Of a stretch of DNA of 27,781 nt, positions 1 to 27,781 are shown in pieces; the first letter of the stretch is position 1; every line of letters begins with the position of its first letter. A model generated the notes under the pieces. It had not been told where the DNA came from and did no database searches. It saw only the letters and a program-made list of their open reading frames with translations. This stretch comes from a virus (taxonomy: Duplodnaviria; Caudoviricetes), in IMG/VR virus record IMGVR_UViG_3300038530_001398, positions 1 through 27,781 of that record; one strand, written 5' to 3'. A program made the translations under genes and the position numbers.

Positions 1-103
1 TTATATATCCTTATGGGTATCAGAAAAAAGGCTCAACAGTAAACATGATTGGATGGGGCGACTACAAAGAGGAGAAACACTTACAAGAAAGAATATGTTT
101 TAG

Positions 104-238
104 ATGATAGATCTAAAAGATATTGCAGATAAAGAACTTATACCATGCAAAGATTGTAGTGGTATATCAGTAATAATATGTACATTCAAAGATTCAAACA
201 TACAGTTTGGACTTTGTGCCGAATGTGCAGCAAGTTAA
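104..238 (+). CDS. Small zinc-finger protein, 44 aa (not in ORF track)
   Basis: Hand translation MIDLKDIADKELIPCKDCSGISVIICTFKDSNIQFGLCAECAAS* has two CxxC pairs. The ATG abuts upstream stops and the TAA overlaps the SD of the next gene. Confidence 0.65.
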   Translation: MIDLKDIADKELIPCKDCSGISVIICTFKDSNIQFGLCAECAAS

Positions 239-248
239 GGAGGTTGAA

Positions 249-854
249 ATGGCAGCAAAATTCTTAGAAGATTACATCAAAGTTGATGATCTAATTAAGA
301 AACTAAACAAAGATAATCCAAGTGCAAGACTTGTTACAGAGTTAGAAACTATGGTTGGAGATATTGTTATCTTCAAAGCAAGTTTGTATCTGGATGATTC
401 TGATGTTGTGAAATGTACCGGGTATGGTGCAGAGAACATAAACAGGGAGAAAAAACTAGAAAAGGCTGAATCGGTAGCTCGTGGGCGTTGTTTGCGTGTT
501 TACTTCGGTGCAGAGCCTACACAGGAGGAAATGGAGGATATTGCTAGAAATAAGGCAACTACGCCTAAAAAGGGCTCTAAATCCACATTAGATACCAAAG
601 TAGAGGCACTTGTTGATGATGGATTGGTTGAAGATCTATCCCAGAAACAACAAAGCATTATTAATAATGTAAAGAACTTTTCTATGGATATTACAAACAA
701 AAACGAGTACAACGCAAAATCTTTTTATGCTCAAGCTCTTGGAGAGATGGGTATGAAAGAAAATGAACTATCTGTAAATAATATGGATTCTGTGAAGAAT
801 AAAATACAGGATTTAGTAACATTATCTCAAATTGAAAATGATAAGGGAGAGTGA
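249..854 (+). CDS. Putative Rad52/Sak-like single-strand annealing (recombination) protein
   Basis: DYIKVDDLIKKL...FKASLY...TGYGAE...LEKAESVARGRCL resembles phage Rad52-fold annealing proteins. AGGAGG at 238-243 favours ATG 249 over TTG 207. Confidence 0.6.
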   Translation: MAAKFLEDYIKVDDLIKKLNKDNPSARLVTELETMVGDIVIFKASLYLDDSDVVKCTGYGAENINREKKLEKAESVARGRCLRVYFGAEPTQEEMEDIARNKATTPKKGSKSTLDTKVEALVDDGLVEDLSQKQQSIINNVKNFSMDITNKNEYNAKSFYAQALGEMGMKENELSVNNMDSVKNKIQDLVTLSQIENDKGE

Positions 855-1267
855 TGTCTTGGATACAGGTAGATATATCTTTTTTGCGAAATCCTAAATT
901 GATTCAGTTTGCAAAAGCCAATGGGCTTTCACAGATGGAGGCAATAGGATCACTCGTAAAACTTTGGGCATATTCTTTTGAGTTTGGAAAAAAGCCCGGC
1001 TATATTCCCCATCCTGAACTACTGAAAAACGAAGTTTGGGATGGTGTGGATCTACTTGAGCAAATGGTAGATGCAGGATTTGTTGATAAAAAAAAGTCTG
1101 GATATTTTGTACATGATTGGCAAGATAAGTATTCACAACTAGATAAATATAGAAAGATGAATGCAGCTAGACAGAAAGCATATCGGCAAAGAAAAGCAGA
1201 AGAAGAATCTCAAAAGAAATACAAAAAGTTAATGAAAGACTTACATGGGCATGACATTGTTGAGTAA
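851..1267 (+). CDS. Phage replication initiator / replisome organizer, N-terminal domain
   Basis: WIQVD...NPKL...AIGSLVKLW...GYFVHDWQD...NAARQKAYRQRK is typical of phage initiator N-termini. Followed by iteron-like repeats. Confidence 0.65.
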   Translation: MMSWIQVDISFLRNPKLIQFAKANGLSQMEAIGSLVKLWAYSFEFGKKPGYIPHPELLKNEVWDGVDLLEQMVDAGFVDKKKSGYFVHDWQDKYSQLDKYRKMNAARQKAYRQRKAEEESQKKYKKLMKDLHGHDIVE

Positions 1268-1350
1268 TGTTAGCGTTGCGTTACTGTTACATAACTGTAA
1301 CAAACATGTGATGATACAGAGTAGAGTAGAGTAGAGAAGAGTAAAGAAGA
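1268..1350. repeat. Origin-like tract: GTTAC/GTAAC motifs, perfect inverted repeat TGTTACA-N4-TGTAACA, AGAGT pentamer array
   Basis: Inverted repeat at 1285-1302; AGAGT x3, AGAGA, AGAGT at 1318-1342; AT-rich flank to the right. Confidence 0.6.
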
Positions 1351-1371
1351 TAATATATAAAAATAAGGAGG

Positions 1372-1629
1372 TTGAAACTGTTTAGATATAACAATAAATT
1401 AACAGATTTACAGAAAGTTAGATCAGTCTTAGAACTTGAGGGCGAGATTTGCTCTTTAGATCCAAATGTTAAAAGAGTAAGGCAGCAGATCTATGTTCTT
1501 ACTAAAAATGAACATTTGGATATTTGGAAAGAGGATTGTGATTGTCAAGATGGTATGACAAGAGCAACACTCAATCGTGATGGTACACCTAGAAAACATA
1601 AAAGATATTTTTTGGAGTGGGCATTATGA
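1372..1629 (+). CDS. Small winged-HTH-like protein with Cys/His residues
   Basis: TDLQKVRSVL...ICS...RQQIYVL...DI...CDC...HKRYFL. AGGAGG directly abuts TTG 1372, so the in-frame CTG at 1378 is an alternative start. Confidence 0.5.
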   Translation: MKLFRYNNKLTDLQKVRSVLELEGEICSLDPNVKRVRQQIYVLTKNEHLDIWKEDCDCQDGMTRATLNRDGTPRKHKRYFLEWAL

Positions 1630-1787: not shown

Positions 1788-1867
1788 TGGATGTTATTTT
1801 TGTATTATTGATTGTTTTAGGTGTAAATTATCTTGCATGGTGGTTGATAAAAAACGATAAAATATGA
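1784..1867 (+). CDS. Single-TM micropeptide, 27 aa (not in ORF track)
   Basis: MMDVIFVLLIVLGVNYLAWWLIKNDKI*, ATGA-coupled to both neighbours. Confidence 0.55.
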   Translation: MMDVIFVLLIVLGVNYLAWWLIKNDKI

Positions 1868-2280
1868 TTGATTTACTTTTATCTTGTTCATTGTTGGCAC
1901 AGTTGAACTTTCATATATACCAGCCCAATGACATACCAACTGTTGTTCAACAATGCGAGATAATAGAGGAAGTGCAGGAGTGGATACCTTTAGTTAGCGA
2001 AATGTTCACAGATGATTCTGCTCTTGCACTTACTATTCTTTTTTGTGAATCATCTGGGTATGCAAATGCAACAGGGTACAATAAAGATGGATCAATAGAT
2101 CAGGGATTGTTTCAATTTAATAATAATACTGAAAAATGGCTTGAGGATGATATTTATAAGAGAGATCTTGATATGTATGATCCATACACAAATGTAAAAG
2201 CTGCTCGGTGGTTGTCTAAATATGATGGTTGGCATCATTGGAATAGTTCTAAACATTGTTGGGGGAGATATGACAGATAG
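1864..2280 (+). CDS. Secreted lysozyme-fold / SLT-type lytic transglycosylase
   Basis: Catalytic-like CESSG, DQGLFQFN, DPYTNVKAARWL and WHHW motifs; hydrophobic N-terminus. Confidence 0.8.
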   Translation: MIDLLLSCSLLAQLNFHIYQPNDIPTVVQQCEIIEEVQEWIPLVSEMFTDDSALALTILFCESSGYANATGYNKDGSIDQGLFQFNNNTEKWLEDDIYKRDLDMYDPYTNVKAARWLSKYDGWHHWNSSKHCWGRYDR

Positions 2281-6353: not shown

Positions 6354-6368
6354 TATAGTTATCTTATG
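6354..6368 (+). promoter_or_regulatory. Putative leaderless promoter of the packaging operon (-10 TATAGT, 6 nt, ATG)
   Basis: TATAGT 6354-6359, ATG 6366, no SD. Confidence 0.5.
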
Positions 6369-6866
6369 GATTACATAGATGATATGCACTTAGCATTACC
6401 TCATCAACAACAGGTAGGCGAATCAAACATAGATTTCAAAAGATTTCAATATTATTTAGATATAGGTGCATCAAGAACATACAAGAAAGTTTCGGAAAAC
6501 TTCGGGATTACAGAGAGGCGAATACAACAGATTTCAGCTAAGAATGGATGGAAAGATAGAATATTTGCAATAAATAAAATGCTGAATGAGCAAATAATAT
6601 CAACTGTTTTAGCTCAAGTAGGAGAAACAGCTAGAGATTTATCAGAACAGATCAAGCCTGTTATTTTTAAAATAATAAACGAAATAAACGAAAAGGATCT
6701 AGCAAGTATGAATCCAACAGAACTTAAGGGAATACTTGATGTTTGTTATAAGATACTTGCTCAAATCTATGGCTTTGGTAATCCTCAAGTACAGGTTACA
6801 AATGTTGAATATCCACAGATAAACTTCAAATGGGATTGGGAACAAGATGGCGATCAAGACTATTGA
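6366..6866 (+). CDS. terS: Terminase small subunit (HTH)
   Basis: GES...FQYYLDIG...RTYKKVS...WKDRI HTH pattern; immediately upstream of and overlapping terL. Confidence 0.7.
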   Translation: MDYIDDMHLALPHQQQVGESNIDFKRFQYYLDIGASRTYKKVSENFGITERRIQQISAKNGWKDRIFAINKMLNEQIISTVLAQVGETARDLSEQIKPVIFKIINEINEKDLASMNPTELKGILDVCYKILAQIYGFGNPQVQVTNVEYPQINFKWDWEQDGDQDY

Positions 6867-8085
6867 TGCCAATCCACCTGATCTACATTCTGGACAAGTA
6901 GAAGTAATAAAAGCTCTCAATGAAAATAGACATGTTATTGCTGTATGTGGAAGAAGATGGGGTAAATCTACACTCTCTCTCGTGGCAGCACTAGATCAAG
7001 CACTTAAGAAAAATAAAGTATGGGTTATCTTTCCTGTGTATCCACAGAGTTTAGAGGCATGGCTCAATATCAAATCTTTGATAAGACAACTCCCGGAAGA
7101 ATATGCAGAAGTAAGGGAGGTAGAAAAAAGAATAGTTTTGAAAAATGGTGGATCTATACAAATCAAATCAGCTAATAAACCTGAATCATTGAGGGGTGCA
7201 GGTGGTATTTCTTTGATTATCTTTGATGAGGTTGCTTATATGGATAAAGAAACATGGGATACAGTACGACCAATACTATCTGATAATCTTGGTAAGAGTC
7301 TTATGATTACTACACCAAATGGAGTGAATTGGTTTTATGATCTGTTTGAAAATGCAAAGCGTAGAGATGATTGGGCAGTATTTCATTATCCAACAGAAAA
7401 CAGCCCAAAAATAGATAAGAAAGAACTAGCCTTAGCAAAAGAAGAACTTGGATCGTTAGTTTTTGCTCAAGAGTTTCTTGCAGAGTTTACAGAGGTTGGC
7501 AATATGTTTAAGAGAGAATGGTTTAGATATTTTGAGATTTTACATCCAAACTCTGAAGATCCAGAGTATTTAGTTGATGGAGAGGTATATAAACATTCTG
7601 ATCTATCTTTCTTTGGAACTATGGACACAGCTTTATCACAGAAAGAAACTGCTGATTATTCTGTAATTATGGTTGTAGGCACTACACCAGATGGCAAGAT
7701 GTTAATAATGGATATATACCGGGATAGACTAGCTGCTCCTGATTTAGTGCCAAGAATAGAATATACAATACAAAAGTTTGATCTTGCATGGCTTGGTGTT
7801 GAGGATTCTTCTTTTGGACTAGGTATTATTCAGATGGCTAGGAGGCAGGGGCTACCTATAAAGAATCTCAAAGCAGATAAATCAAAGACAGCTAGAGCTG
7901 TACCAGCAGCAGCAGGAGTAGAAAATGGCACGATCTACTTTTTGAAAAACGCCAAATGGTTAGTAGAATTTGAGAAAGAACTTACGAGCTTTCCGAGTTC
8001 TGGTACACATGATGATCAGGTGGATGCGTTAGCTTACGCAGCTAGGCATGGTATTGTAAGAAAGACAAAATGGAGTGTAATCTAA
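6847..8085 (+). CDS. terL: Terminase large subunit
   Basis: Walker A CGRRWGKS, SLRG, Walker B LIIFDE, motif ITTPNG, nuclease MDTA...ADYS and HDDQVDA. Confidence 0.97.
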   Translation: MAIKTIDANPPDLHSGQVEVIKALNENRHVIAVCGRRWGKSTLSLVAALDQALKKNKVWVIFPVYPQSLEAWLNIKSLIRQLPEEYAEVREVEKRIVLKNGGSIQIKSANKPESLRGAGGISLIIFDEVAYMDKETWDTVRPILSDNLGKSLMITTPNGVNWFYDLFENAKRRDDWAVFHYPTENSPKIDKKELALAKEELGSLVFAQEFLAEFTEVGNMFKREWFRYFEILHPNSEDPEYLVDGEVYKHSDLSFFGTMDTALSQKETADYSVIMVVGTTPDGKMLIMDIYRDRLAAPDLVPRIEYTIQKFDLAWLGVEDSSFGLGIIQMARRQGLPIKNLKADKSKTARAVPAAAGVENGTIYFLKNAKWLVEFEKELTSFPSSGTHDDQVDALAYAARHGIVRKTKWSVI

Positions 8086-11000
8086 TTGGGATTAACAGAT
8101 AATATTAGAGATTTTTTCAGGCAACAGGGAGAACAAGAAACAAAGGCATACAGCAGTTTCCCAAACAATCAGGTTGTTTTTCCTTTCAATACAGATATAG
8201 GTTTTTTTAGTGGTGTAGATCAGATGAGCCCGGAGGGTAACTCTGCTGCACTCGCTTGTTTGAATGTTCTAGGTACAGCGTTTTCAGAGCCACCATTAGA
8301 AGTCTATGAAGAAACAACTGATGGTAAAGAACAAGTATTAAATCATCCTGCATCAATGCTTATGAAGAAACCATCTCCATACATGAGTGGTAACTTACTT
8401 AATCAATATATTGTTGCATCTGTGTCTGTGGCAGGAGATGCCTTTATCTTGAAGTTAAGAAGTGAGGCAGGAGATGTAGTTCAGTTATATCCTTTGATTC
8501 CAGAACAAGTTGATGTAAAAGGTACAAAAGAAGAACTGATTACACATTACGAATACAAGCAAAAAGGTCAAAATATGTATATTCCAAGAGAGGACATGAT
8601 ACATATTAGAGAGAGGATAGATCCTAGAAATCACAGAAGAGGACTAGCTCCACTTAGATCAGTAATGGTAGAAATACTTGGAGATAGTGCTGCAAGTCAA
8701 ATGGCATCAGCTCTTGTAAAAAATATGGGTGTTCCGGGAGTAGTTATATCTCCAAAGAACGATCTATCAATGTCAGGAGAAGAGGCAGAAAACATTGCAG
8801 AGGTATTCGGTAGAAGATTTGGTGGAGAGAACAGAGGTAAACCTCTAGTTGTATCAGGTGGAGAGATTGATGTACAAACACTTTCTTTTTCTCCAAAAGA
8901 TTTAGAGATAGGTAGTTTGAGGCATGTTAATGAAGAGAGAATATCAGCAGTTCTTGGTATTCCAGCAATATTAGCTGGACTTGGAGCTGGTCTTGCATCA
9001 AGCACTTATGCAAATGTAAGTGAGCTAAGAAACTTCTTTACAGAACAAAAACTGATCCCAATGTGGAAGAATGTTGCACAGGATCTTACAAATCAATTAT
9101 TACTTGCAGATTTTACAGATGAGTTGAATTATTCAATGATGTACGATCTATCTGATGTGAGAGCTTTACAATCTGATGAGGCATTAGAAATGGATAAGGT
9201 TGTAAAGGGTTTACAAGCAGGTTTCGTAACAATAGCAGAGGCAAGAAAAGCAACAGGATTTTCTTCGGAAGATCCAAACATGGATGTGTACTTGCGAGGC
9301 ATACAACAGGTTGAAGTTCCAGCAGATGGATCAGAGCCAAGAGTGTTTGCAGGTCAAGTACCAACAGGCGTTCCTGATGCAGATCAGTTTGAAGAAAACA
9401 AGTCTGGAAAGAAAGATGAAGAATATGATGATACCTACATCATTCTTGAAGATGGCGAGAGAGTTCATATCTCTTGGCTTGAGCAAAAAAAGATTAAGAA
9501 AGAAGATGGTAGATATTGTGTATATTCAAAAGATGGAGATAGAAAGTTTGGCTGTTATGACACGAGAGCAGAGGCACAAAGAAGATTAAGACAGATTGAA
9601 AGATATAAAGCTATGTTTGGAGATTTGAAAGTAGGGGATTCTGTTTCGTGGTCTATCAACAAAGATCCTGATCCTCCAAGTACAATTCATGGTGTCATAG
9701 AGTCTTTGAATCAAAATGAAGAAACAGCAAACATAAGAGTATGGGCAATCTTAGAAGATGGAGGACACCAGAGAACAGATAGAGTTGTTGAGGTAGAAGT
9801 ATCAAAGCTCAGAGTGATTGATGCAATAGATCAAGAAGAAAAGCAACTATCCGATAGAGTTGAGAAAGCTCTTAAGAAAAAAATGGAAGAGCACAATGCT
9901 GATTCTCCAAAGTACAGAGCGACAATGGGAATGTTACGAAAAGTTTTTGAAAGAGGAGTTGGAGCATATAGAACAAATCCCGGATCAGTAAGAGGTAATG
10001 TAACATCAGCAGATCAATGGGCAATGGCTAGAGTAAATGCTTTTCTAAAAGCTCTGAAAACAGGTAAGTTTCCACGATCTCCTTTTGATACAGATTTATT
10101 ACCAGAGGATCATCCAGATGCCTCTGATGAGAAATATGGAAAGCCAAAGAAACCAAAGAAACCTAGAAGAAGAAAAAAAGCAATAGATAATGTACCAACT
10201 TACATACAAAAAAATGCACAAAGAGGGTTAGATCTTCTTGAGTTTGCAGGAGATGGTTTAGTAGAAAGAACAATCCGAGAGGCAAGAAGAATGGCAAATG
10301 GAGAAATATCTGATGATAAGGCAAGAAGAATGTCAGCTTGGTTTGCAAGACATGAAGTAGATTTAGAAAGCGATAGAGCAAAAGATTACATAGCAGGTAG
10401 AATTTCCGAGCCACCTCCCGGAGTTGTTAGCTGGTTGCTTTGGGGTGGATCTTTATCAGAGTCAGAGAGAATGAATGCACAGAAATGGGCAGCAAGACAA
10501 GTAGAGCAAATGGATGAAGAAAAATCCTTACGATATGATTTCTATGGATGGGAAGATCCAACAGTAAAGTATCTTGGTTTGCCACCTGTAAAAAGATATA
10601 AGACAGAAGAAGAAAAACAAATCTATTGGAAAGAGATAGATAATTTAAGAACAAGATGGGAGGGAACACTATCAGAGATATATGCAAAAGAGCTTAATAG
10701 ACAAAAGCGAGAGATAGCACGAGAAATTAGATCAAGTAAAAATATTGATGATATGGAAACACGAATAGAAAAGGTAATAGATAGTACAAACTTTGAAAAA
10801 GAGTTTTTACCATTGTATTACTCTCTTTCAGATGATTTCTCTGTAAGAACATACGATAGTTTGTTTCCACAGCAGAAAGAAGAAAAGGCAGCAGATCCTG
10901 TAAGTTTGGGTGTAACTGTTGATGAAGAAGAAACGATCAGAACAGTTTTTACAACTCTTGGTACATTACTTCCATCACAGGGAAGAAGTATCAGAAATAT

Positions 11001-16802: not shown

Positions 16803-17210
16803 ATGCCAACATTTACACATGGAAAGAATGCAGCATTTAAGTTTGATGATTCTGGAGGAACATTAAGAGATATATCTAATGTCTTAACTGATGTTGCAGT
16901 ATCAAGAACAGCAGATGTTGCAGAGGTATCGGCTTTTTCAAATTCTAGTAAGGCTTTCGTATCTGGTTTGACTGATGGTACGATAACCTTATCTGGTAGC
17001 TTTGATGCAACAGTCAATGGTTATTTAACAGGTATTCTAGGATCAGAAGTTGATTTTGAGTTCTATCCGATAGGAACTACCGGAGGAAATCCAAAGGCTA
17101 GTGGTAAAGCAATTTTGACAGCTTATGATAGAACACCAGACATCGCAGGAGCAGTCGGTTTTTCAGCGACTTTCCAACTTACAGGCACAATAACAGAGGG
17201 TAGTGCTTAG
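16803..17210 (+). CDS. Major tail (tube) protein
   Basis: HGKN...ADVAEVSAF...KAFVSGLTDGTITLSG...FSATFQLTG; AAGGAG SD; precedes the chaperone. Confidence 0.8.
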   Translation: MPTFTHGKNAAFKFDDSGGTLRDISNVLTDVAVSRTADVAEVSAFSNSSKAFVSGLTDGTITLSGSFDATVNGYLTGILGSEVDFEFYPIGTTGGNPKASGKAILTAYDRTPDIAGAVGFSATFQLTGTITEGSA

Positions 17211-17241
17211 AATATAGATTGAATTAAAAAAGGAGATCTAT

Positions 17242-17598
17242 ATGAAAAGATTAAAACTTGAGGATATATCTAATCCTCCAGCACTAAAAGAACAAGAAGT
17301 AGAGCTTGAACAATGGAACAAAACAGTTATTGTTCAGGGTTTGACAAAAGCAGATACTGTTGAAATCAATGAATTATCAGAAGATGAGAATGGTATTAGA
17401 AATGATGTCTTGTTTGAAAAGTATCTTTTGTTAAAAGGATTGAAAGATCCAGAGCTTGATTCTCTTGATGATGTTGATAACTTTTACAGCAATGCTACAT
17501 CACAAGTAATAGATCAAATATTACTAGGTATTTATAAGTGTATGGCATGGACTAAGGAGGATCAGGCTAATATAGCCGATAAGTTTCCAGAACAATGA
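17242..17598 (+). CDS. Tail assembly chaperone (gpG-like)
   Basis: Between tube and tape measure genes; VELEQWNKTVIVQGLT...DPEL; AAGGAG SD. Confidence 0.8.
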   Translation: MKRLKLEDISNPPALKEQEVELEQWNKTVIVQGLTKADTVEINELSEDENGIRNDVLFEKYLLLKGLKDPELDSLDDVDNFYSNATSQVIDQILLGIYKCMAWTKEDQANIADKFPEQ

Positions 17599-17776
17599 TG
17601 AGTTAGCTTTTGAGTTTCGTTTAGCTCTTGATCTAGGAATGACAGTTGATGAACTAAGGAAGAAGATGTCAATTCAGGAGTTTGAGTCTTGGAAGTTATA
17701 CTACATTGATAGGAATAAAAAAGAAACGAAAGCAATGACAGAGGCAAACGCAACACGAAAGTTAAGGAATAGATAA
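17585..17776 (+). CDS. Tail assembly chaperone extension (gpT-like), in the +1 frame (not in ORF track)
   Basis: FQNNDELAFEFRLALDLGMTVDELRKKMSIQEFESWKLYY...; its TAA overlaps the tape measure ATG. Confidence 0.75.
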   Translation, partial: FQNNDELAFEFRLALDLGMTVDELRKKMSIQEFESWKLYYIDRNKKETKAMTEANATRKLRNR

Positions 17777-19770
17777 TGGCTAGTGCAACACTAGAGATGA
17801 TTATTGACTTGGTAGGAGTCAATAAAGCAGCAAGAGGATTCAAAAAAATATCTAGTGGTCTTAAATTATTTAATGATGAGGCAGAAGAGGGATCAAAGAA
17901 AGCTAAAAAGTTTGGTAGTAGTCTTTCAGGGTTACAAAAAACAGCGATAGCTGGTGGAGCGTTAATAGCTGGTAAAGCATTATTTGATTTTTCAAAAGAG
18001 GCAGTAAATGCAGCAACGAGTGCAGATGAGGCAGCAGCAGCTTTTGGAACTACATTTGGAACAGCAGCACAAAGAGCAACAGAGTTTTTAGAAGATTTTG
18101 CAAATAAAGCTGGTCTTACTGTTGGAGAGGCTCAACAACTTACAGCAACTCTTGGAGCTGTTGCACAGGGTATCGGATTTACACAAGAAGAGTCAGCAGA
18201 TCTTTCTATTGAACTTACAAAGATTGCAGCAGATGTTGCATCTTTTTCTAACATTACAGCAGGAGCAGAGCCTGTGTTACAAGCATTTAGATCAGCTTTA
18301 GTTGGAGAGAGGGAGGCATTGAAAACCTATGGTATTGCAATCACAGAGGCAGAGGTACAAACAAAGGCTTTTGAGCAAACAGGTAAATTTTCGGCAGATA
18401 TGCTTACACGACAAGAAAAGGCTTTTGCCACTCTAGCTCTGATACAGGAAAAAGCAGCAGTTCAAATAGGGGATTTGGATCGTACTTTACTTTCTTTTGC
18501 TAACCAATCAAGAATAGTTGGAGCTGAACTTAGGGAACTTAGAGAGGATATAGGTAAAGAATTAATACCAGCATTAGAAATATTATTGCCAAAATTTAGA
18601 GAATTGGTAGAGGATATTGCTCCAAGTTTGATTGAGGGTTTTGGTAATGCTGCAACAACTGTTATTGATCTTGTTTTAGCTCTTGATAGATTCAATGATA
18701 TGGATGAGGGGTTATTATTTCTAATTAAAAACTTTAGAGAATTAGCTGAAGAACAAAGAGCTATCAACGAGGCTTTTGCTTTTGCCAATAGACTTACAAC
18801 AGAAAAAATAGTTGCAGAGGCTTTACTAAACACAGAAAAAAGAAAATCAAGAAACGAAAGTAATTTACAGAGAGTTGCATTTGAAAAGTTAGATACACAG
18901 TTACAAAAAAAATCTATACCATTACTCAAAACTTATATTGATTTAGTTGAAATGCTCACAGGGGAAGATGAAGATCTAACAGGTGCTGAAGATGAACTAA
19001 CAGATGCAAAAGATAGAGTTGCAGAGGCACAAAGAAAAGAGGCACTTGCAACAGCAGAAGAAAGATTACAAAAGAAAGAATTACAAGCACAGATTCAAGA
19101 ACTTTTATTTTTTCAAGAAAAGGGTATTGATGTTAGTGAGGAACTAGCAGTAGCACAAGAAAAATTAAGACTTGTTGAATTTGAACTCACAAGAGAATCA
19201 GAAGAATTACGAACTGCAAAAAAAGATCTTGCAGATATAGAAAAAGAACTATCTGCTGTTGTTGATGAAACAACAGATTCTTTTGCAGGTCAAGTAGAAC
19301 AATTTATAAAATTAAATGAACAAGCAGATATTTTTAATCAACTGAATGCAGATGAAGATTTTATGGATCTTGTTAAAGCAAATAAGGAACTAAATCCATT
19401 TATAGCAGCAAATCTTGGTGTATTGAGTGATATAGCTGAATTACAGGGATTAAATGAAAGAGCTAGAGAATTTGACAATTTTGCAAGAGCTGCTGAAAGA
19501 TTAGCAGATGCTCAAGAAAGATTGACAAATATTCCAAGAATTGAATTTACACCACCAGATTTTACACCTGATCCCGGAGATATACCATTAGATCCGGCAT
19601 TACAAAAAGCATTAGATCAAGCTCAAAATGGAAATGGTAATGGTGGAACAGGAAATGGAGATATTAATTTAGATCTTACAGTTGAAGTAGCTGGAGAGGA
19701 AGTTGATAGAGTTTTTAGATCTACCTTACAAAGACTAGAAAACGCAAATGGATTTATCACTAATTTTTAA
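17776..19770 (+). CDS. Tape measure protein
   Basis: Ala-rich helical 664 aa; AADVASFSN...ALVGEREALKTYGI motif; synteny. Confidence 0.9.
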   Translation: MASATLEMIIDLVGVNKAARGFKKISSGLKLFNDEAEEGSKKAKKFGSSLSGLQKTAIAGGALIAGKALFDFSKEAVNAATSADEAAAAFGTTFGTAAQRATEFLEDFANKAGLTVGEAQQLTATLGAVAQGIGFTQEESADLSIELTKIAADVASFSNITAGAEPVLQAFRSALVGEREALKTYGIAITEAEVQTKAFEQTGKFSADMLTRQEKAFATLALIQEKAAVQIGDLDRTLLSFANQSRIVGAELRELREDIGKELIPALEILLPKFRELVEDIAPSLIEGFGNAATTVIDLVLALDRFNDMDEGLLFLIKNFRELAEEQRAINEAFAFANRLTTEKIVAEALLNTEKRKSRNESNLQRVAFEKLDTQLQKKSIPLLKTYIDLVEMLTGEDEDLTGAEDELTDAKDRVAEAQRKEALATAEERLQKKELQAQIQELLFFQEKGIDVSEELAVAQEKLRLVEFELTRESEELRTAKKDLADIEKELSAVVDETTDSFAGQVEQFIKLNEQADIFNQLNADEDFMDLVKANKELNPFIAANLGVLSDIAELQGLNERAREFDNFARAAERLADAQERLTNIPRIEFTPPDFTPDPGDIPLDPALQKALDQAQNGNGNGGTGNGDINLDLTVEVAGEEVDRVFRSTLQRLENANGFITNF

Positions 19771-19772
19771 TT

Positions 19773-21017
19773 ATGTCAGTAGCTTTTGATTCAGATGTAA
19801 CATTAACTTGCGAAATAGCTTTTGATTCTAATCCATTAGATTCTTCTCAAACATTTACAGATGTATCTGCTTTTCTTCGTAGTTTTAAAATATCAAGAGG
19901 AAGAGCATCAAACTTAACAGAGTTTCAGCCCGGAACAGCAGTTGTTGAATTAGATAATTCAGATAACAGATTTTCTCCGAATCAAACTACACATTTCTTT
20001 GATTCATCAACAAATAGAACTAAAGTACAGCCACTAAAAAGATTAAGAATAAAAGCTGCATATTCTGGTACAACATATACTTTATTTACAGGTTTTGTAG
20101 AATCTTTCCCGGTAAATTATCCTCTTGCAGGTCAAGATTCTGTTGTAAAAATAAAAGTAATTGATGCTTTCAAGCTATTTCATAATGCAACATTAGATTC
20201 AGTTGGCTGGAAACTAGGTACATCTTTACTTGGACAAACTACAAGACTTGCATTCGGACAAACACAAGAATTATCTTCTGTAAGAGCAGCAAATATATTA
20301 AATTCATTTGGTTACACAAATCAATCAATATCAACAGGTACATTACAGGTACAAACACAATCAACAACAGATACATTACTTGCAGCTCTTCAAGCTGTTG
20401 AAAGAGCAGAGAATGGTACATTTTTTATTGCAGCAAATGGTAATGCTACATTTAGAGATCGTAATTTTAGATTAACAAACACAACAACACCAGATGCTAC
20501 ATTTGGGCAGGGTGGATCAGATTTGCCTTATTCAGATATAGTTTCTTCTTATGATGATACAAAAATTATTAATACAGTTTTACTTACTAGGACAGGTGGA
20601 TCACAACAAACAGCAGTTTCTGATGATTCTGTGCAAAGATTTGGTACACACACATTAAAAAGAACAGGTTTGCTTAATATTCAGGATTCTGATGTTTCTT
20701 CTATTGCAAATCAAAAAGTTGTTGAAAATGATATACCACAAACATCAGTAGCAAGTTTGACATTTAAACCACAAGTAGATACTTCATTATGGGCAAAGGC
20801 TTTAGGTTTAGATATTGGAGCTTTTGTAAAAACTAATGTTTTGACTCCATCTGGTACAACAGAATCTTATGATTTGTTTATTGAAAACATAAGCCATAAT
20901 GTTGATTCAAGAACTAAAACTTGGACATGGAAAATAGGTCTATCTCCAGCAGAAACCGGAGCATGGATTTTGGGAGTTTCAAAGTTAGGAATTGATACTA
21001 ACATAAGTTATACTTAA
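19773..21017 (+). CDS. Minor tail / hub protein
   Basis: ISRGR...PGTAVVELDNSDNRFSP...LFTGFVE...G.FFI..NG.ATFRDR; follows the tape measure gene. Confidence 0.75.
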   Translation: MSVAFDSDVTLTCEIAFDSNPLDSSQTFTDVSAFLRSFKISRGRASNLTEFQPGTAVVELDNSDNRFSPNQTTHFFDSSTNRTKVQPLKRLRIKAAYSGTTYTLFTGFVESFPVNYPLAGQDSVVKIKVIDAFKLFHNATLDSVGWKLGTSLLGQTTRLAFGQTQELSSVRAANILNSFGYTNQSISTGTLQVQTQSTTDTLLAALQAVERAENGTFFIAANGNATFRDRNFRLTNTTTPDATFGQGGSDLPYSDIVSSYDDTKIINTVLLTRTGGSQQTAVSDDSVQRFGTHTLKRTGLLNIQDSDVSSIANQKVVENDIPQTSVASLTFKPQVDTSLWAKALGLDIGAFVKTNVLTPSGTTESYDLFIENISHNVDSRTKTWTWKIGLSPAETGAWILGVSKLGIDTNISYT

Positions 21018-21034
21018 AAAAATAAAGGAGAATT

Positions 21035-21919
21035 ATGGCAGCCGGTGGATGGTTTGATTGGACAACAGGAGATTTAGTAACCGAGTCTAGGTTTCAAGAT
21101 ATACAAGATAGTATTGTATTCATTTTTAGCTCTGAAAGTGCAGCAAATTCAGCCCTTACAAACAAAGTTGAGGGAACAATATTTTATGACACCACAGCAA
21201 ATTTAATTAAGGCATGGAATGGATCTGCTTGGATTGCTGCTGAATCAGGCGATATTGAGGGCATCACAACGAGCTCTACATCTGGTTTAGCAGGTGGTGC
21301 TACATCTGGAACACCAAGCCTTAGTGTATCTCCAAACTCGGCAACATCAGGTACGATTGCAGCAGGAGATGAAATACTTTTTGGAGATATATCTGATAGT
21401 AACAATCTTAAAAAAGCCACAGCACAAACGATTGCCGATTTAGCTAGTGTTACATCACTTATAACAAATGTAACAGTAAAAGTGGCAGATGATGGATCAG
21501 GTAGTCAAAATGTCTTTTATATGCTTTCTGGATCAGATACAGGATCAGGAACTAAAACACCAGCTTTAGATATTTCATTTGGTATGAAAGTACGATTTGA
21601 TGTTTCAGATTCTTCATTTTCAGGACATAATTTTAAATTTTCAACAACAAAAGATGGTAATCATGGTGGAGGATCTGAATTTACAACAAATGTAACTACA
21701 AATGGATCTCCGGGCAGTACAGGTGCTTATGTACAATTAGAGGTAACACCTGAAACATTAGGAACAGCAACAGCAACAGGATCAACAGTTGGCACACTTT
21801 ATTATTATTGCAATAACTCCGGTCATTCTGGTATGGGAGGAGAGGGAAGATTAAGTCTTTTTCCTGCTACTTCAACAGGTGGAGGAGCAAGTGTTGGACT
21901 AATATTAGCTTTAGGCTAG
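21035..21919 (+). CDS. Tail fiber/tip protein with a C-terminal cupredoxin-like domain
   Basis: EGTIFYDT...WNGSAW fiber motif; RFDVSDSSFSGHNFKFSTT...LYYYCNNSGHSGMGG. Confidence 0.7.
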   Translation: MAAGGWFDWTTGDLVTESRFQDIQDSIVFIFSSESAANSALTNKVEGTIFYDTTANLIKAWNGSAWIAAESGDIEGITTSSTSGLAGGATSGTPSLSVSPNSATSGTIAAGDEILFGDISDSNNLKKATAQTIADLASVTSLITNVTVKVADDGSGSQNVFYMLSGSDTGSGTKTPALDISFGMKVRFDVSDSSFSGHNFKFSTTKDGNHGGGSEFTTNVTTNGSPGSTGAYVQLEVTPETLGTATATGSTVGTLYYYCNNSGHSGMGGEGRLSLFPATSTGGGASVGLILALG

Positions 21920-21929
21920 AAAGGATAAA

Positions 21930-22265
21930 ATGGCTGAAACATATAAAAATGCACGATTGGCAATAACAAACTCCGAGCAAACACTATACACTAATGGAAG
22001 TGGTGGAGCTGGGATAATTGTTTCATTAATTATTACAAACATTGATGGATCAGCAGATGACACAGTAACAGTAAAAGTTAGAGATTCTTCTGCATCAGCA
22101 GATACAGAAATAGCTAGTACAATGACTGTTCCAGCAGATTCACGATTAGATGTTTGTGGAGATAATACTAAAGTGTTTTTAGAAAATGGCGACAGCATAA
22201 AGATTACAGGAGGAGCAGCCTCAGGAGATCTTATAGCATTAGCGAGTATTTTAGAGATTACATAA
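21930..22265 (+). CDS. Small tail-associated beta-sandwich protein
   Basis: LYT...IITNIDG...VPADSRL...KVFLENGDSI...SILEIT. Confidence 0.65.
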   Translation: MAETYKNARLAITNSEQTLYTNGSGGAGIIVSLIITNIDGSADDTVTVKVRDSSASADTEIASTMTVPADSRLDVCGDNTKVFLENGDSIKITGGAASGDLIALASILEIT

Positions 22266-22274
22266 AGGGGAAAT

Positions 22275-22898
22275 ATGCCATTCAGCTATGTGGGGAATTT
22301 TCCTAACCAAAAAATTAAAAATTCTGGTATTTTTTCTCCAGAAGATGTTTTAAATTTATCATCTGTTGGAGAGTATGGTGGTAGTTTAGAGTTTATTGCG
22401 CAAGAAACTTATTCATCATCAGTTTCTACTGTTGATTTTCTTAATATAAAAGAAAATAAATTTGATGTTCATGTATTAGAAATTATTTCTCTTAAAATTT
22501 CGCCAACTAATTCAGGTGTCAGAGTTCAAATGTATGAAAATGGAGTTTTAGAAAGTGGCACAGTTTATCATGGTGCTAGGCAGGTTTGTGGTGTATCAGG
22601 AACTTTCTTAGAGCAAAAGGATACAACATATAGCGGAATTGTTGTTGGTGGTAGTACAACAACTGCAACAGGTCATAATACAATGGCATATATATATTTG
22701 TATAATCTTGGCAACTCAAGTAAATACAGTTTTTCCAACATTCACGATATGACTTTTGATTATTATGAGGCTGGTGTTTCTAATTTTGGTCTTTTTGTAT
22801 TACCACAAGCTAGTTCAGTAAATGGTTTAAGAGTTACAACAACATCTGGTAATTTTACAGATTTTGATATAAAACTTTATGGAGTGAAAAAAATTTAA
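22275..22898 (+). CDS. Tail-tip beta-sandwich protein, cassette 1 type A
   Basis: Paralog of 25141..25716 (GIFSP.DV, LE.I, F.N....K..VH.L, E.G.LESG.VYH, LPQ.S.V.G, LYG). Confidence 0.75.
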   Translation: MPFSYVGNFPNQKIKNSGIFSPEDVLNLSSVGEYGGSLEFIAQETYSSSVSTVDFLNIKENKFDVHVLEIISLKISPTNSGVRVQMYENGVLESGTVYHGARQVCGVSGTFLEQKDTTYSGIVVGGSTTTATGHNTMAYIYLYNLGNSSKYSFSNIHDMTFDYYEAGVSNFGLFVLPQASSVNGLRVTTTSGNFTDFDIKLYGVKKI

Positions 22899-22899
22899 C

Positions 22900-23421
22900 A
22901 TGAGTAATTTAAGATTATTAAATCAAACAGATGTAACAAGTGCAAGTCAAATAAATATTACAGATGTATTTACTTCTGATTTCGATATATACAAAATTGA
23001 ATTTGATTATTCTTTTGATGCTACTTCTAATATAAGTGCAAGATTAATAAATTCAAGTGGAAGTGCTGTAAGTACAGCTAATTATGATTTTGCTTACTTG
23101 CAAACAAGAACAGATACAAGTTTTAGTGAGGGCAGAGGTACAGGTAGCACAAATTTTTATTATTTAGGAAGTTCAACTGCTGGAAGTACGCTTGGAGGTG
23201 GAACTATACTTTATATACTAAATCCATTTTCTACCTCATCTTATACTTTTATGATTTATCAAAATTCTGGTAGTTATAGTTCATCCACTGCACTAGGTTA
23301 TAAAGGGATAGCAATTTTAAAAGAAAATAGTTCAATCACAGGTTTTCAATTAGATACTTTGACTACAAATAATTTTACCAATACAAAAGTAAGAACTTAT
23401 GGATTGAGAGTTGATAGCTAA
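22900..23421 (+). CDS. Tail-tip beta-sandwich protein, cassette 1 type B
   Basis: Paralog of 25716..26228 (NL.L, FT...D.YK, RL..S.G, YD.A, SSYTF..Q, YK.I, ITG). Confidence 0.75.
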   Translation: MSNLRLLNQTDVTSASQINITDVFTSDFDIYKIEFDYSFDATSNISARLINSSGSAVSTANYDFAYLQTRTDTSFSEGRGTGSTNFYYLGSSTAGSTLGGGTILYILNPFSTSSYTFMIYQNSGSYSSSTALGYKGIAILKENSSITGFQLDTLTTNNFTNTKVRTYGLRVDS

Positions 23422-23933
23422 TGGCAGGTAAATTAGTACAAGTAGCAACAAGTACAGTAAGCGGTACTTCAACAAATGCAGTTGATTTAATTGGAACAAC
23501 TACTGATGATGTATATATGGTTGCTTTAACAAATGCAAGTACAACTTCAGATGGACAAATTAGAACAAGAGTTTTAGTTAGTAGTAGTGCAGATACAAGT
23601 TCAGAATACGATCAAGCAAGTAAGGCACTTATAGCAAATGCGTCTTTTAGTAATGATACACAAACGAATGCAGATCAGTGGCGATTTATGTTTACAGGTA
23701 ATCAAGCTAACGAAACTCAATCAGCAATAATATATTTATATAATTTTAATGACAGTTCAGAATACAGTTTTGTAACAAATGAAGTAGCAGGTTGGACTAA
23801 TGATCCAAGACTTTATGGATTGCAAGGTGGTGCAGTACAAACTGAGGCACAAAGTTGCAATGGTATTAGGTTTTATGCTTTAAATGGAAATTTAAGTGAT
23901 GGAAGTAAATTTACATTGTATAAGGTGGTATGA
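23421..23933 (+). CDS. Tail-tip beta-sandwich protein, cassette 1 type C
   Basis: Paralog of 26228..26746 (MAG.L, AV.L.G, AD..SEYD.A, NE, L.NF...SE.S..T.E, L.G.QG, GN....KF.L). Confidence 0.75.
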   Translation: MAGKLVQVATSTVSGTSTNAVDLIGTTTDDVYMVALTNASTTSDGQIRTRVLVSSSADTSSEYDQASKALIANASFSNDTQTNADQWRFMFTGNQANETQSAIIYLYNFNDSSEYSFVTNEVAGWTNDPRLYGLQGGAVQTEAQSCNGIRFYALNGNLSDGSKFTLYKVV

Positions 23934-23934
23934 C

Positions 23935-24849
23935 ATGACAACACAAAAACAATTCGGTGTAATAGGAAATGTTCCAGATCAATCATTTGCAAATCTACCA
24001 AGAAAATATAATCCAATAGTAAAACCAAATGAATATACAATAGAATATTTAGTTATAGCTGGATCAGGTGGATCAGCACAGGGTGGCGGAGGATCAGGAG
24101 CAGGGGGTTACAGAAACTCTTATGCAACTGAAACATCTGGAGATGGATCATCAACTGAAACACCAATATCAGTAAAAGGATCAGCATTTTTTGAAGTTAC
24201 TGTTGGAGCAGGTGCATCAGGAACTATTGGCGGAAGTAATCCAAGCAATGGCTCTAATTCAAGTTTTGGAAATATTGTATCAATAGGTGGAGGATCTGGT
24301 GGAAGATACGATCAACATTCTGGACAATCTGGAGGCTCTGGTGGGGGGGGAGGCACAGGAGCAACAGGTGCAGGTAGTGGAACAGCTAATCAGGGTGGAG
24401 ATGGAACAGCAGGTCAATCCAATACAGCCGGAGGTGGTGGAGGGGGAGCATCAGGCAATGCAAGTGCCTCATCTACTAACAATGGTGGTAATGGAGGAAA
24501 TGGTCTAGCATCTTCAATTACAGGATCTTCAGTTACACGAGCTGGAGGTGGGGGAGGTACAGGTAACTCCTATGGAGGCTCTGGGGGATCTGGAGGAGGA
24601 GGAGCAGGTGCAAATACTTCATCAGGTGCAGGAGGTAATGGTACTGCTAACACCGGATCTGGTGCTGGAGGAGGCTATAAAAATCCAGCAGGAGCAGGTG
24701 GAAATGGTGGATCAGGAGTAGTAATTATTAGAGTTCCAGATTTTGTAAATGTTACTGTTGGATCAGGTTTGACATCATCAACATCAACAAGTGGAAGTTC
24801 TAAAATTGTAACATTTACAGCAGGAACAGATATAGTGAGTTTTTCATAA
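23935..24849 (+). CDS. Glycine-rich tail fiber/adhesin-like protein
   Basis: EYLVIAG.GG...GAGGYR, VTVGAG, RAGGGGG, GTANTGSGAGG, GGSGVVIIR. ATG 23935 follows the upstream TGA. Confidence 0.8.
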   Translation: MTTQKQFGVIGNVPDQSFANLPRKYNPIVKPNEYTIEYLVIAGSGGSAQGGGGSGAGGYRNSYATETSGDGSSTETPISVKGSAFFEVTVGAGASGTIGGSNPSNGSNSSFGNIVSIGGGSGGRYDQHSGQSGGSGGGGGTGATGAGSGTANQGGDGTAGQSNTAGGGGGGASGNASASSTNNGGNGGNGLASSITGSSVTRAGGGGGTGNSYGGSGGSGGGGAGANTSSGAGGNGTANTGSGAGGGYKNPAGAGGNGGSGVVIIRVPDFVNVTVGSGLTSSTSTSGSSKIVTFTAGTDIVSFS

Positions 24850-25148
24850 TGGCACATTACGCATTTTTAGATGAAAATTCTATCGTTACTGAAGTTATAG
24901 TAGGTAAGGATGAGGGTAATGGTGTTGATTGGGAAGAATATTATGGAAATATTAGAAAACAAACATGTAAAAGAACTTCTTATAATACTCTAGCCAATGA
25001 ACATAAATTGGGTGGTACTGCATATCGTGGTAACTACGCATCAATAGGATATACTTATGATGATACAAATGATGTGTTTATTGCTCCAAAACCAGCAGAT
25101 AATTACACATTAAATACTGAAACTTGGACATGGGAAGAAGATGAGTAA
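24849..25148 (+). CDS. Small partner of the Gly-rich protein (assembly/chaperone-like)
   Basis: MAHYAFLDENSIVTEVIVG...RTSYN...NYASIGYTYD...FIAPKP; TAATG-coupled. Confidence 0.7.
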   Translation: MAHYAFLDENSIVTEVIVGKDEGNGVDWEEYYGNIRKQTCKRTSYNTLANEHKLGGTAYRGNYASIGYTYDDTNDVFIAPKPADNYTLNTETWTWEEDE

Positions 25149-25716
25149 TAAAGGAATATTTAGCCCAAAAGATGTAAAATTTTTAATGGATTTTGAACAA
25201 TATCCAATGTTAGGACAATTAGAATTGATACAAACACAAAATATTACTACTGCACAATCAAGTGTAATATTTAGTAATCTTCAAAACGATAAATACCAAG
25301 TTCATTTTTTAATAGCATCAAATTATCATCCTGCTACTAATGATAGATTAGGAATGCAATTTTTTGAAAGTGGAACATTAGAATCTGGAAGTGTATATCA
25401 CATAGCATATAGGTATGGTTATTACAGTTCATCATTTGGACATAATAAATCAACAAGTTCTAATCATATTAAAATATGCCCAGATGAAGAAGATGATACA
25501 GGAGATAGTAGTAGTGGTTATTGTTACATTTATAATGCAGCCGATCCTAATCAATACACTTTTACCACACAACAAATGGTAGGAACTGATTACTTTAGAT
25601 TTGGTGGTGGTTGTTTACCACAAAAAAGTGTTGTTGATGGAATAAAATTATTTGGGGATGATAATGGACAGGATTTTACAGGCACTTTTTCCCTTTATGG
25701 TATAAGGTTTACATAA
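25141..25716 (+). CDS. Tail-tip beta-sandwich protein, cassette 2 type A'
   Basis: Paralog of 22275..22898 but lacking its first ~14 aa. Confidence 0.75.
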   Translation: MSNKGIFSPKDVKFLMDFEQYPMLGQLELIQTQNITTAQSSVIFSNLQNDKYQVHFLIASNYHPATNDRLGMQFFESGTLESGSVYHIAYRYGYYSSSFGHNKSTSSNHIKICPDEEDDTGDSSSGYCYIYNAADPNQYTFTTQQMVGTDYFRFGGGCLPQKSVVDGIKLFGDDNGQDFTGTFSLYGIRFT

Positions 25717-26228
25717 TGGCAACGAATTTACAATTAATAGAATCTTTCAACTCTACTGTTGCAACATTGAACTTAGTAAATATTTTTACTGATAAATATG
25801 ATAATTACAAACTAATAGCATCAAATTATGCCAACAGCTCTGCAACAACTAATTATAATGTTAGATTATTAGATAGTGGTGGAAACAGGATAGCTGATTC
25901 AGAGTACGATAACGCAACATATATTTTAGATAGTAACGCATCTCCTGCTGAATATAGAGGAGAGGGTAATAGTTTATTTAGATACTTTCCTGTTACAAAT
26001 TCAAGTTATAATGTTGGAATCGGAACTGCTATTGATGTGTTTAGCCCAAATAATAGTTCAAGTTATACATTTTTACAATGGCAGGGTACTGCATGGTCTG
26101 GAACAAAAATTTATAATTATAAAGCTATTGGAGTTCACAAAGTTGCAGAACAAATAACAGGCATAGAAATAGTTGCTAATTCTGGAACTATGAATGGTTT
26201 TAGAGTATCTGTGTTTGGAGTAAAGTAA
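25716..26228 (+). CDS. Tail-tip beta-sandwich protein, cassette 2 type B'
   Basis: Paralog of 22900..23421; TAATG-coupled. Confidence 0.75.
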   Translation: MATNLQLIESFNSTVATLNLVNIFTDKYDNYKLIASNYANSSATTNYNVRLLDSGGNRIADSEYDNATYILDSNASPAEYRGEGNSLFRYFPVTNSSYNVGIGTAIDVFSPNNSSSYTFLQWQGTAWSGTKIYNYKAIGVHKVAEQITGIEIVANSGTMNGFRVSVFGVK

Positions 26229-26746
26229 TGGCAGGTAGTTTAAAATTAATTCAGGAAACAAATGTTACATCTGGAACATCTGCGGTTACATTGACAGGGA
26301 TTGACAGCACTTTCGATATTTATGTAGTTTACTTTTCAAATGTAGAATGCAGCACAGATAATGAAGAGCTTTATTTTAGAGTTACCACATCTGGAACTGC
26401 TGATAGTGATAGTGAATATGATTACGCTATGATGGAGTTTAAATCTTATGGATCATACAGTAATAGTTACTCTACTAATCAAACAAAACAATATCTAACC
26501 TATTTAGGTACTCCATCAAATGAACAAGCTAATGGGATTTTACACCTTTTTAACTTTTCTAACGCAAGTGAGTTTTCTATTTATACTATTGAAAATGTAA
26601 ACCTAAATTCAATTTCAAAACTTTCTGGAGCACAGGGGGCAGGTAAACATACTGTACAAGAGGCAAATGATGGGGTTTCTTTCTTCATGGATAATGGAAA
26701 TATTGATAAAGGTAAATTCCAGCTTTTTGGAATCAAAAAAGACTAG
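26228..26746 (+). CDS. Tail-tip beta-sandwich protein, cassette 2 type C'
   Basis: Paralog of 23421..23933; TAATG-coupled. Confidence 0.75.
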   Translation: MAGSLKLIQETNVTSGTSAVTLTGIDSTFDIYVVYFSNVECSTDNEELYFRVTTSGTADSDSEYDYAMMEFKSYGSYSNSYSTNQTKQYLTYLGTPSNEQANGILHLFNFSNASEFSIYTIENVNLNSISKLSGAQGAGKHTVQEANDGVSFFMDNGNIDKGKFQLFGIKKD

Positions 26747-26769
26747 ATTAGAATATAGAAAGGTAAATT

Positions 26770-27090
26770 ATGGCAAAAACAGAGGCACAAGCTAAGAAAG
26801 AGGCACAAGCTGAATTTGATGCACTAAAAGAGCCACTTAAAAAAAGTGTAAATGGTGTAGTAGAAGATTTCAGCTCAAGCGACAATGAACAATGGATAGT
26901 AGATAGAACAAACTCTATTTTATATGAGGCTAATGAAAAATGGGCTCAAGATAGAATGGAGAACTATCCTCCATTAGTTGATTTTGTTGAGGCTTACACC
27001 GAAAAAGAGATCGGTGGAGATGATACAAAATGGAAAGCCTATAAAACAGCTTATGAAAAAGTAAGATCAGATTATCCAAAACCTAGCTAA
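26770..27090 (+). CDS. Tail fiber assembly-like small protein
   Basis: C-terminal DRMENYPPL...W...KVRSDYPKPS pattern, typical of genes following phage fiber genes. Confidence 0.6.
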   Translation: MAKTEAQAKKEAQAEFDALKEPLKKSVNGVVEDFSSSDNEQWIVDRTNSILYEANEKWAQDRMENYPPLVDFVEAYTEKEIGGDDTKWKAYKTAYEKVRSDYPKPS

Positions 27091-27105
27091 TAACTATTAA
27101 ATAGA

Positions 27106-27120
27106 TATACTTGCGTTATG
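27106..27120 (+). promoter_or_regulatory. Putative leaderless promoter (-10 TATACT, 6 nt, ATG)
   Basis: TATACT 27106-27111, ATG 27118, no SD. Confidence 0.5.
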
Positions 27121-27369
27121 GAATCTTTAGAAGATTTTACAGAGAAACAGGGTGGCGTATCAGGTCATAAAGCACAAATGAGATATATCCTTAAAAACAA
27201 AAAAGCTAGAGATATATTTCTTGAGATTGCAAAAGAGGCAGAAGAAAAAAACATATCTGATACAATCGCAGCACAATATCTTGTAGAGAAATACGATTTA
27301 TTTTCACATCTACATTACAACACAGTAAGAAGATATTTCAGGGATTATAGGTATGGCAGAATCAAGTGA
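27118..27369 (+). CDS. Small HTH-like hypothetical protein
   Basis: ISDTIAAQYL...LHYNTVRRYFR. Confidence 0.6.
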   Translation: MESLEDFTEKQGGVSGHKAQMRYILKNKKARDIFLEIAKEAEEKNISDTIAAQYLVEKYDLFSHLHYNTVRRYFRDYRYGRIK

Positions 27370-27781
27370 TTTAGACAAATTCAAAGAAACTGTTTACGAC
27401 AGATCTCCTTATCAACGCAGAAAAAGAATACATCCACAGGGTTATGAGCCCGGTTACAAGTTTTCAGAAGAAACACAATCAGGAGAGATTACATCATCTC
27501 CACAAAAAACAAATGATGTAGATTGGCAAGAGCAGCTTTCATCATACTTTGGTAAAGATGCACATAAATATCAAGTTGTTCCCGGAACAGCAGAAATAAG
27601 ATTTTGGGATGCCAATATGGGCAATGGAGACATAGAGAGATTTTATTATTTCAAAGCAAAGATTGTTTCATCTGAAAAGTTTATGCCAGATGAAGATTTT
27701 AGAAAGCTCTTAAATCTTACTAAGAAGATCAAGCCATACGAAAAAAAGAAACTAAAAAAAGGAAAGTTGTTTACTGTTTGC
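27353..27781 (+). CDS. Partial ORF running off the window; possibly the N-terminus of a phage metallophosphoesterase
   Basis: Open for 143 codons: MAESSDLDKF...HPQGYEPG...IRFWD...YYFKAKI...LFTVC. Catalytic motifs would lie beyond the edge, so the function is recalled, not seen. Confidence 0.55.
   Translation, partial: MAESSDLDKFKETVYDRSPYQRRKRIHPQGYEPGYKFSEETQSGEITSSPQKTNDVDWQEQLSSYFGKDAHKYQVVPGTAEIRFWDANMGNGDIERFYYFKAKIVSSEKFMPDEDFRKLLNLTKKIKPYEKKKLKKGKLFTVC

Follow-up and report, generated by a model that had tools for sequence, protein, structure and literature searches.

The stretch of DNA analysed here (hereafter the window) is a single contig of 27,781 bases with 35% GC, which forms a virus record of its own (IMG/VR IMGVR_UViG_3300038530_001398) and represents a siphovirus-type marine phage. 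About 40 short words, including GAAGC and GAAGG as two separate cases, have been removed from it by synonymous recoding, probably under pressure from many orthodox Type II restriction enzymes distributed over strains of its likely host, the Candidatus (Ca.) Actinomarinales. The words are purged from both strands and all codon phases, their removal continues among close variants, and GAAGC and GAAGG were lost at different times. This is a known phenomenon, restriction-site avoidance, in an extreme variant.

An original prediction, made from the letters of the window, had described GAAG as very common and always followed by A or T, and exact counts agree: GAAG occurs 194 times on the plus strand (144 GAAGA and 50 GAAGT) and CTTC 40 times (19 TCTTC and 21 ACTTC), with zero copies each of GAAGC, GAAGG, GCTTC and CCTTC on that strand. 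A maximal-order Markov model gives expectations over both strands of 35.1 for GAAGC/GCTTC and 17.5 for GAAGG/CCTTC. Under a codon null consisting of 500 per-gene synonymous-codon shuffles of the 38 genes, the observed zeros stand against 41.3 +/- 4.9 (lowest shuffle 28) and 29.8 +/- 4.4 (lowest shuffle 18), respectively. Depletion is not limited to one strand, the per-strand expectations being 29.3/12.0 for GAAGC/GCTTC and 25.1/4.7 for GAAGG/CCTTC with none observed; it is also not confined to one codon phase, all three having non-zero expectations, although some strand-phase cells are small, with less than 2 expected (CCTTC 2.6/0.7/1.3), and are little proof alone. The codon choices reported earlier were recovered as well. 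GAA is the dominant Glu codon overall (438, against 249 GAG). In 22 genes, Glu-Ala is always written with GAG (GAA-GC 0, GAG-GC 29), as is Glu-Gly (GAA-GG 0, GAG-GG 18), and GCT-TC is used in none of 16 Ala-Ser pairs and CCT-TC in none of five Pro-Ser pairs with a TCN serine codon. The example given for this, in the prohead protease gene (12134..12151, plus strand), has Glu-Ala twice as GAG-GCN; it starts at 12134, not 12133.

The two words belong to a broader list that the original prediction missed. Exhaustive word enumeration, with purged words defined as those at 12% of expectation or less, identified 40 contiguous words purged genome-wide (six four-mers, 14 five-mers and 20 six-mers), of which GAAGC and GAAGG/CCTTC are two, together with about 12 spaced patterns. 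The four-mers are ACGG, ACGT, CGTC, GCGC, GGCC and TCGA, and the five-mers ACTGG, CAAGG, CACTG, CATCG, CCAGG, CCTTC, CTCAG, GAACC, GAAGC, GACCC, GAGAC, GGGAC, GGTGA and GTCAC. As a null control, 20 shuffled genomes yielded 0 four-mers, 0-1 five-mers and 0-2 six-mers so depleted. Six-base palindromes total 200 copies against 389 expected, 45 of the 64 being absent. The spaced zeros include CC..GG, GC..GC, GG..CC and CAC.....GT (0/24), and none arose in any of 20 shuffles; some of the spaced patterns starting with GAA may in part be by-products of the purged five-mers. About eleven of the purged five-mers are presumably sites of known Type II enzymes, and we know of no enzyme for GAAGC, GAACC, CAAGG, ACGG or GACG.

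Surviving copies of purged words number 13 in all, and nine of them sit in the variable tail-tip module at 21930..26746 (17% of the window; binomial P 5e-5). Such a concentration is expected if the module was swapped in lately, and it was likely acquired more recently. In another record, G010, eight of nine GAAGC copies lie inside 2.3 kb. As for words outside the purge list, CCGG is enriched in the window (37 against 15 expected), partly because Pro-Gly uses CCG or CCC, avoiding CCA-GG and CCT-GG, and TTAA, AATT and TATA are only partly depleted, to about 60-70% of expectation.

The direction of recoding flips with the word: the codon GAA is never used before GC, GG or CC, and before AC it is GAG that is never used (GAG-AC 0, GAA-AC 37), which codon bias or mutation bias cannot produce. 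Where a relative carries GAAGC and the encoded protein is the same, the window usually reads GAGGC (16 of 20 such sites in comparison with G007). An allele test was performed on 20 close loci of 88-99.5% identity, with other synonymous sites supplying the expected rate. The 926 isolated single-base differences included 15 synonymous alleles that recreate a purged word, against 209 expected (GAAGC 1 against 10.3; CCTTC 0 against 8.6). Pooled DNA of the candidate hosts described below (812 kb of overlapping loci) keeps the words, with observed/expected ratios (O/E) of 0.50-1.31 over the 40, 0.90 for GAAGC and 0.99 for CCTTC; specificity of the purge to the phage depends on the host assignment.

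The original prediction had joined the two words into one site, GAAGS, read by a host defence. Selection against both words, most likely through host restriction, is upheld; a single specificity is not. Among 90 loci of the window's clade (6 kb or more each, a redundant set), 77 avoid GAAGG only, eight avoid both words, five avoid neither and none avoids GAAGC only. In G001-G005 (records of 21-26 kb, CheckV 72-88% complete), the observed/expected counts are 45/41, 41/40, 57/50, 58/44 and 61/48 for GAAGC and 3/23, 0/22, 0/24, 1/26 and 0/27 for CCTTC, and most relatives have as many GAAGC copies as expected or more. With GAAGG avoided clade-wide and GAAGC kept in most relatives, a pressure on GAAGG alone exists; GAAGC needs a second pressure, the target of which could be GAAGC, GAAGS or GAASC. 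The loss of GAAGG is old and clade-wide, and that of GAAGC is recent and belongs to the species group of the window. In the capsid tree, only the group that includes the window has lost GAAGC, L104 also passing the looser threshold of the 90-locus count. CCTTC is the HpyAV site, as had been stated, and also that of Hin4II (PMC2816704). The use of the motif as a host fingerprint is not supported: GAAGG is kept in two phages from another genome of the likely host order (73/59 and 40/40) and in the close relative G416 (27/22), so the word marks sub-lineages at best.

A doubtful alternative is that one relaxed enzyme reading GAAGS (or GAASC) acted on the species group atop a clade-wide enzyme specific for GAAGG. 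The loss of GAAGC is nested in that of GAAGG, which speaks for it, but the nesting tells little because GAAGG is avoided in 85 of the 90 loci in any case. Both GAAGC and GAAGG are scarce in two distant phages (G413, 5/33 and 8/25; G412, 9/24 and 7/26), and marine homologues of HpyAV may, by the account in PMC2816704, read CCTTC or a site different by one base. A separate GAAGC enzyme nevertheless fits equally well, and GAACC has likewise been purged clade-wide.

According to the explanation by many Type II enzymes, each streamlined host strain would carry one or two interchangeable Type II restriction-modification (RM) cassettes, and a phage without a methyltransferase (MTase) of its own, moving among the strains, would be selected against the union of their sites. 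GAAGG would be the target of an HpyAV/Hin4II-type enzyme and GAAGC that of a second enzyme. In a survey covering about 4,000 viruses, Rusinov et al. (2018, PMC6286503) report that the sites avoided belong almost exclusively to orthodox Type II systems. Avoidance is absent there for Type I and IIG, rare for Type III and weak for Type IV/IIM, and 7% of Type II site-genome pairs are eliminated; by that account, the Type IIG or Type III systems also proposed in the original prediction are disfavoured. The window resembles the non-temperate double-stranded DNA phages of this survey in that short sites are wholly gone from both strands. It differs in that 40 words and spaced patterns, about half of them asymmetric, are purged within 28 kb, in that its host has not been cultured and in that an entire dinucleotide is missing from a sister lineage. 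The depletion of GANTC in pelagiphages, as described in PMC9516812, is a comparable case of marine phage subclades differing sharply in one methylation word; there, however, one word and a known host methyltransferase are concerned, and here dozens of words.

The candidate host group is an order of the Acidimicrobiia represented by 65 genomes of 0.6-1.1 Mb (incomplete, one per species), in which 16 of 17 sampled loci have 29-36% GC. It is likely the Ca. Actinomarinales, fitting their description in PMC7771536 as hosts of about 1.1 Mb and 32.5% GC with a flexible RM island in genus G2, infected by phages of 24-29 kb and 33.6-36.5% GC with WhiB as a marker. The host assignment derives from tail and holin genes shared with phage contigs in genomes of this order. 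One of these, G136:C11, is a 29.7-kb contig with WhiB in a 1.1-Mb genome; it matches 16 of the 38 window proteins at 24-51%, avoids CCTTC (1/22), ACTGG, CACTG, CCAGG, GAGAC and GTCAC, and keeps GAAGC (57/51). The holins of the clade are 74-76% identical to those of G136:C11 and of G276:C30 and G276:C36, two circular phages of about 43.8 kb (L286-L291) in one small Acidimicrobiia genome, in both of which GATC is at zero and GAAGG is kept. A place in a host genome and a WhiB gene were observed for the related contig G136:C11 and not for the window's own clade; unlike the Ca. Actinomarinales phages of PMC7771536, the records examined from this clade are without WhiB, and their capsid and terminase are distinct. 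The WhiB phages G136:C11 (L292-L293) and G412 (30.6 kb) encode a WhiB protein of about 215 aa and have purge lists of their own, including CCATC and, in G412, also CATG. DNA matches of window positions 1-7000 in 62 of the 65 host-order genomes were rejected as host evidence, being mostly Thr-codon repeats.

It is unlikely that the host is instead one or more other restriction-rich marine groups and that the actinobacterial link reflects gene sharing only. No close prophage was found by capsid or terminase alignment, the capsid and terminase bear only a distant resemblance to those of the 65 genomes, and no WhiB was found in the window, all of which would suit such a host. The r1t-type holins of the relatives (below the Pfam cut-off) are, however, close in sequence to those of the order's phages, as given above, and the tail module and a matching set of words are common with the WhiB phage G136:C11. 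The nearest Atlas capsid cluster is mostly Actinomycetota among members with a phylum, which serves as a lead only.

RM cassettes are scattered and varied in the order. Within the 65 host-order genomes, C5 MTases were identified in 13, D12-class MTases in 11, Type I-like N6 MTase loci with strong scores in six (with no link to GAAGS) and a core N6/N4 MTase in 58. The neighbours of these MTases include members of the NgoPII, Bsp6I, MvaI/BcnI, Sau3AI, BglII-like, GIY-YIG and HNH families. The NgoPII and MvaI/BcnI sites, which we take to be GGCC and CCWGG, are both purged in the window. HpyAV/Hin4II, a Type IIS system with CCTTC 6/5 as its site (PMC2816704), corresponds to the purging of CCTTC from both strands, seen in G136:C11 and in 85 of the 90 loci of the clade; in contrast, the 65 candidate host genomes yielded no enzyme pair of this kind, and GAAGC is not its site. 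Defence cassettes of the host order are exchanged at a small number of fixed positions (L254, L259, L265, L266, L339-L357), two examples being next to a NUDIX-like and next to a lysA-like gene (both named from a reading of the sequence), and include one DarT-type NADAR gene and one fused N6-C5 methyltransferase. A 422-aa HNH protein lies beside a C5 MTase in G208, and its homologues are all unnamed. The literature search returned no paper tying GAAGC to a methyltransferase motif in REBASE.

Several results weigh against many Type II enzymes of the Ca. Actinomarinales as the cause. No enzyme could be tied to GAAGC or GAAGG, nor could one be assigned to most of the other purged words, and the HpyAV-like pair (a C5 and an N6 MTase, fused or paired, with an HNH nuclease) was not seen in the 65 incomplete genomes, in a search made without the HpyAV sequence as query; HNH_2 is above the cut-off in two of the 65, each time beside a single C5 MTase. 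The purged words greatly outnumber the cassettes seen. GATC is retained in the window (152 against 172 expected) even though the order has a cassette of the Sau3AI type. No close capsid or terminase relative was found in genome contigs, the best terminase match (43%) being in Planctomycetota and the capsid match on G136:C11 just 26%, and the name of the order rests on size, GC and class. The allele test is unpolarised and its loci are non-independent (L089, L252 and L253 are one record).

It is quite improbable that host methylation marks the words and that modification-dependent nucleases of other strains cut the marked phage DNA. MTases that look stand-alone, such as the core N6/N4 MTase, and Mrr-like and HNH proteins are present in the order, and the CG-free lineage described below would fit as well. 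On the other hand, in most of the cassettes examined the methyltransferase has a nuclease of an orthodox family as its partner, and Type IV/IIM sites are weakly avoided by the account in PMC6286503. A neutral cause (codon-pair bias, mutation bias or assembly artefact) is hardly credible: although the partial depletion of TTAA, AATT and TATA may have a non-restriction origin, the exact zeros come with opposite recoding directions, host-order DNA is unaffected, and contigs from three runs, each of a different study, span positions 8000-14200 of the window without a gap (all 30 bins). For the zero words, the recoding and allele tests refute it.

If restriction by many host enzymes is the cause, the restriction specificities of an abundant, uncultured group of marine bacteria are better recorded in the genomes of its phages than in its own streamlined ones, and the purged words are concrete targets for methylomes and cassette screens.

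A sister lineage within the clade has lost the dinucleotide CG. G001-G005 contain 0, 0, 1, 1 and 0 CG against 579-695 expected, and 81 of 143 clade loci (2 kb or more) carry at most two. The CG-free loci fall into 32 groups at 95% identity, the representatives of which hold 3 CG in 265,276 bases against 7,314 expected. Over the clade loci, O/E for CG is two-moded, with 81 loci at 0, three near 0.05 and 59 at 0.25-0.7. CG-free members include the following:
G001-G005, G414, L019, L022, L114, L117, L135, L138 and L361
Three loci in CG-free groups (L151, L153 and L360) have scattered CG with an O/E of about 0.05-0.07; in them the purge may be relaxing or may still be incomplete. Six records use none of the four CGN codons for arginine. 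In the capsid tree the CG-free loci split into two groups; in the terminase tree (a quick version) they come out as roughly one. Almost nothing lies between CG-free and CG-keeping members, which provides a paired natural comparison, within one clade, for the removal of CG from phage DNA.

Decay through CpG methylation and deamination was rejected as an explanation. CA/TG is 1.12-1.17 in the CG-free phages and 1.22 in the window, i.e. without excess, and the synonymous replacements of CG in G001 (AG 40, TG 24, CT 18 and CA 14) show transversions as often as transitions, C-to-T not being the main change. Contexts never avoided by CG-keeping relatives, such as ACGA, are also at zero in the CG-free phages, a pattern better explained by a reader of CG itself than by several four-base sites acting together. 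It is conceivable, and put forward tentatively, that a defence of the hosts reads bare CG, a site of two bases, and that the window's list (GAAGC, GAACC, CAAGG, ACGG, GACG and several spaced patterns, for which no enzyme is known to us) reads out further uncatalogued specificities of the same uncultured hosts. The host loci keep CG at 0.33-0.63 of expectation. M.SssI and M.MpeI, both CG-specific C5 methyltransferases, were the only prokaryotic CG readers met in the literature search. A CG-type methyltransferase was not found among the four of 13 host-order C5 MTases tested, which had no near match to M.MpeI (4dkj, which we take to be this enzyme). The titles and abstract openings covered by the literature search held no paper on the window's clade or on CG-free phages.

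Two further ideas on the rare surviving CG were discarded: it does not form UUCG hairpin loops, and no support was found for its retention as a means of escaping a spaced palindrome whose halves lie 5 bases apart. Comparison of six CG-free records with seven others yielded no convincingly sized gene specific to the former, bar one open reading frame of 205-209 aa without a Pfam match, present in six of six CG-free and none of seven CG-keeping records; examples are as follows:
G414:13209-13823, minus strand
L037:7270-7896
A CG-free subgroup (G003, G004, G005 and G414) also purges GAAGA, the MboII site (1-3 against 60-70).

All 38 called genes of the window are on the plus strand. Complete relatives measure 30-31.6 kb and carry lysis genes, which are missing from the window, so 2-3 kb are probably missing. 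DNA of the window was present in 19 runs, 13 of them labelled marine or seawater metagenome. No cultured relative was found among 50,697 phage records, in which the best terminase match is 28%. No methyltransferase or integrase was recognised in the 30 window proteins scanned, and the window has no tRNA and no Rfam match. Its principal features are listed below:
851..1267, plus strand: replication initiation protein-like gene (PHROG 9474)
1864..2280, plus strand: SLT transglycosylase, with a 48% identical relative on phage contig G276:C36
3376..5535, plus strand: large acidic Thr-rich protein with a signal-like N-terminus
5813-5909, intergenic, before a 133-aa gene: two imperfect 48-base direct repeats
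6366..8085, plus strand: terminase small and large subunits
8086..13849, plus strand: portal fused to a Mu F-like domain, prohead protease and major capsid protein
14176..21919, plus strand: head-tail adaptor, tail terminator, two major tail paralogues, tape measure, minor tail and tail-fibre-like genes, with 29-42% identity to genes of G136:C11
21930..26746, plus strand: variable tail-tip module with paralogous genes of 170-207 aa and a Gly-rich protein (Gly_rich_2)

Relatives carry interchangeable methyltransferase-type genes (short C5, ParB-N6/N4, Mom, MT-A70 and Dam), none of which was found in the window. They are located at the following positions:
L005:4627-5310
L049:560-2089
L104:1088-1915
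L112:777-1316
L018:562-1077
L126:222-971
Relief from purging through the Mom-family gene was considered and rejected, the O/E of non-CG words being 0.35-0.38 with it and 0.37-0.45 without.

The C-terminal domain of the acidic protein is common to the phage contigs G276:C30 and G276:C36 (53%) and G136:C11 (38%). Its frame is open for about 100 codons, with Thr runs, above the called TTG at 3679 (window 3376-3678), and translation likely starts at an ATA codon.

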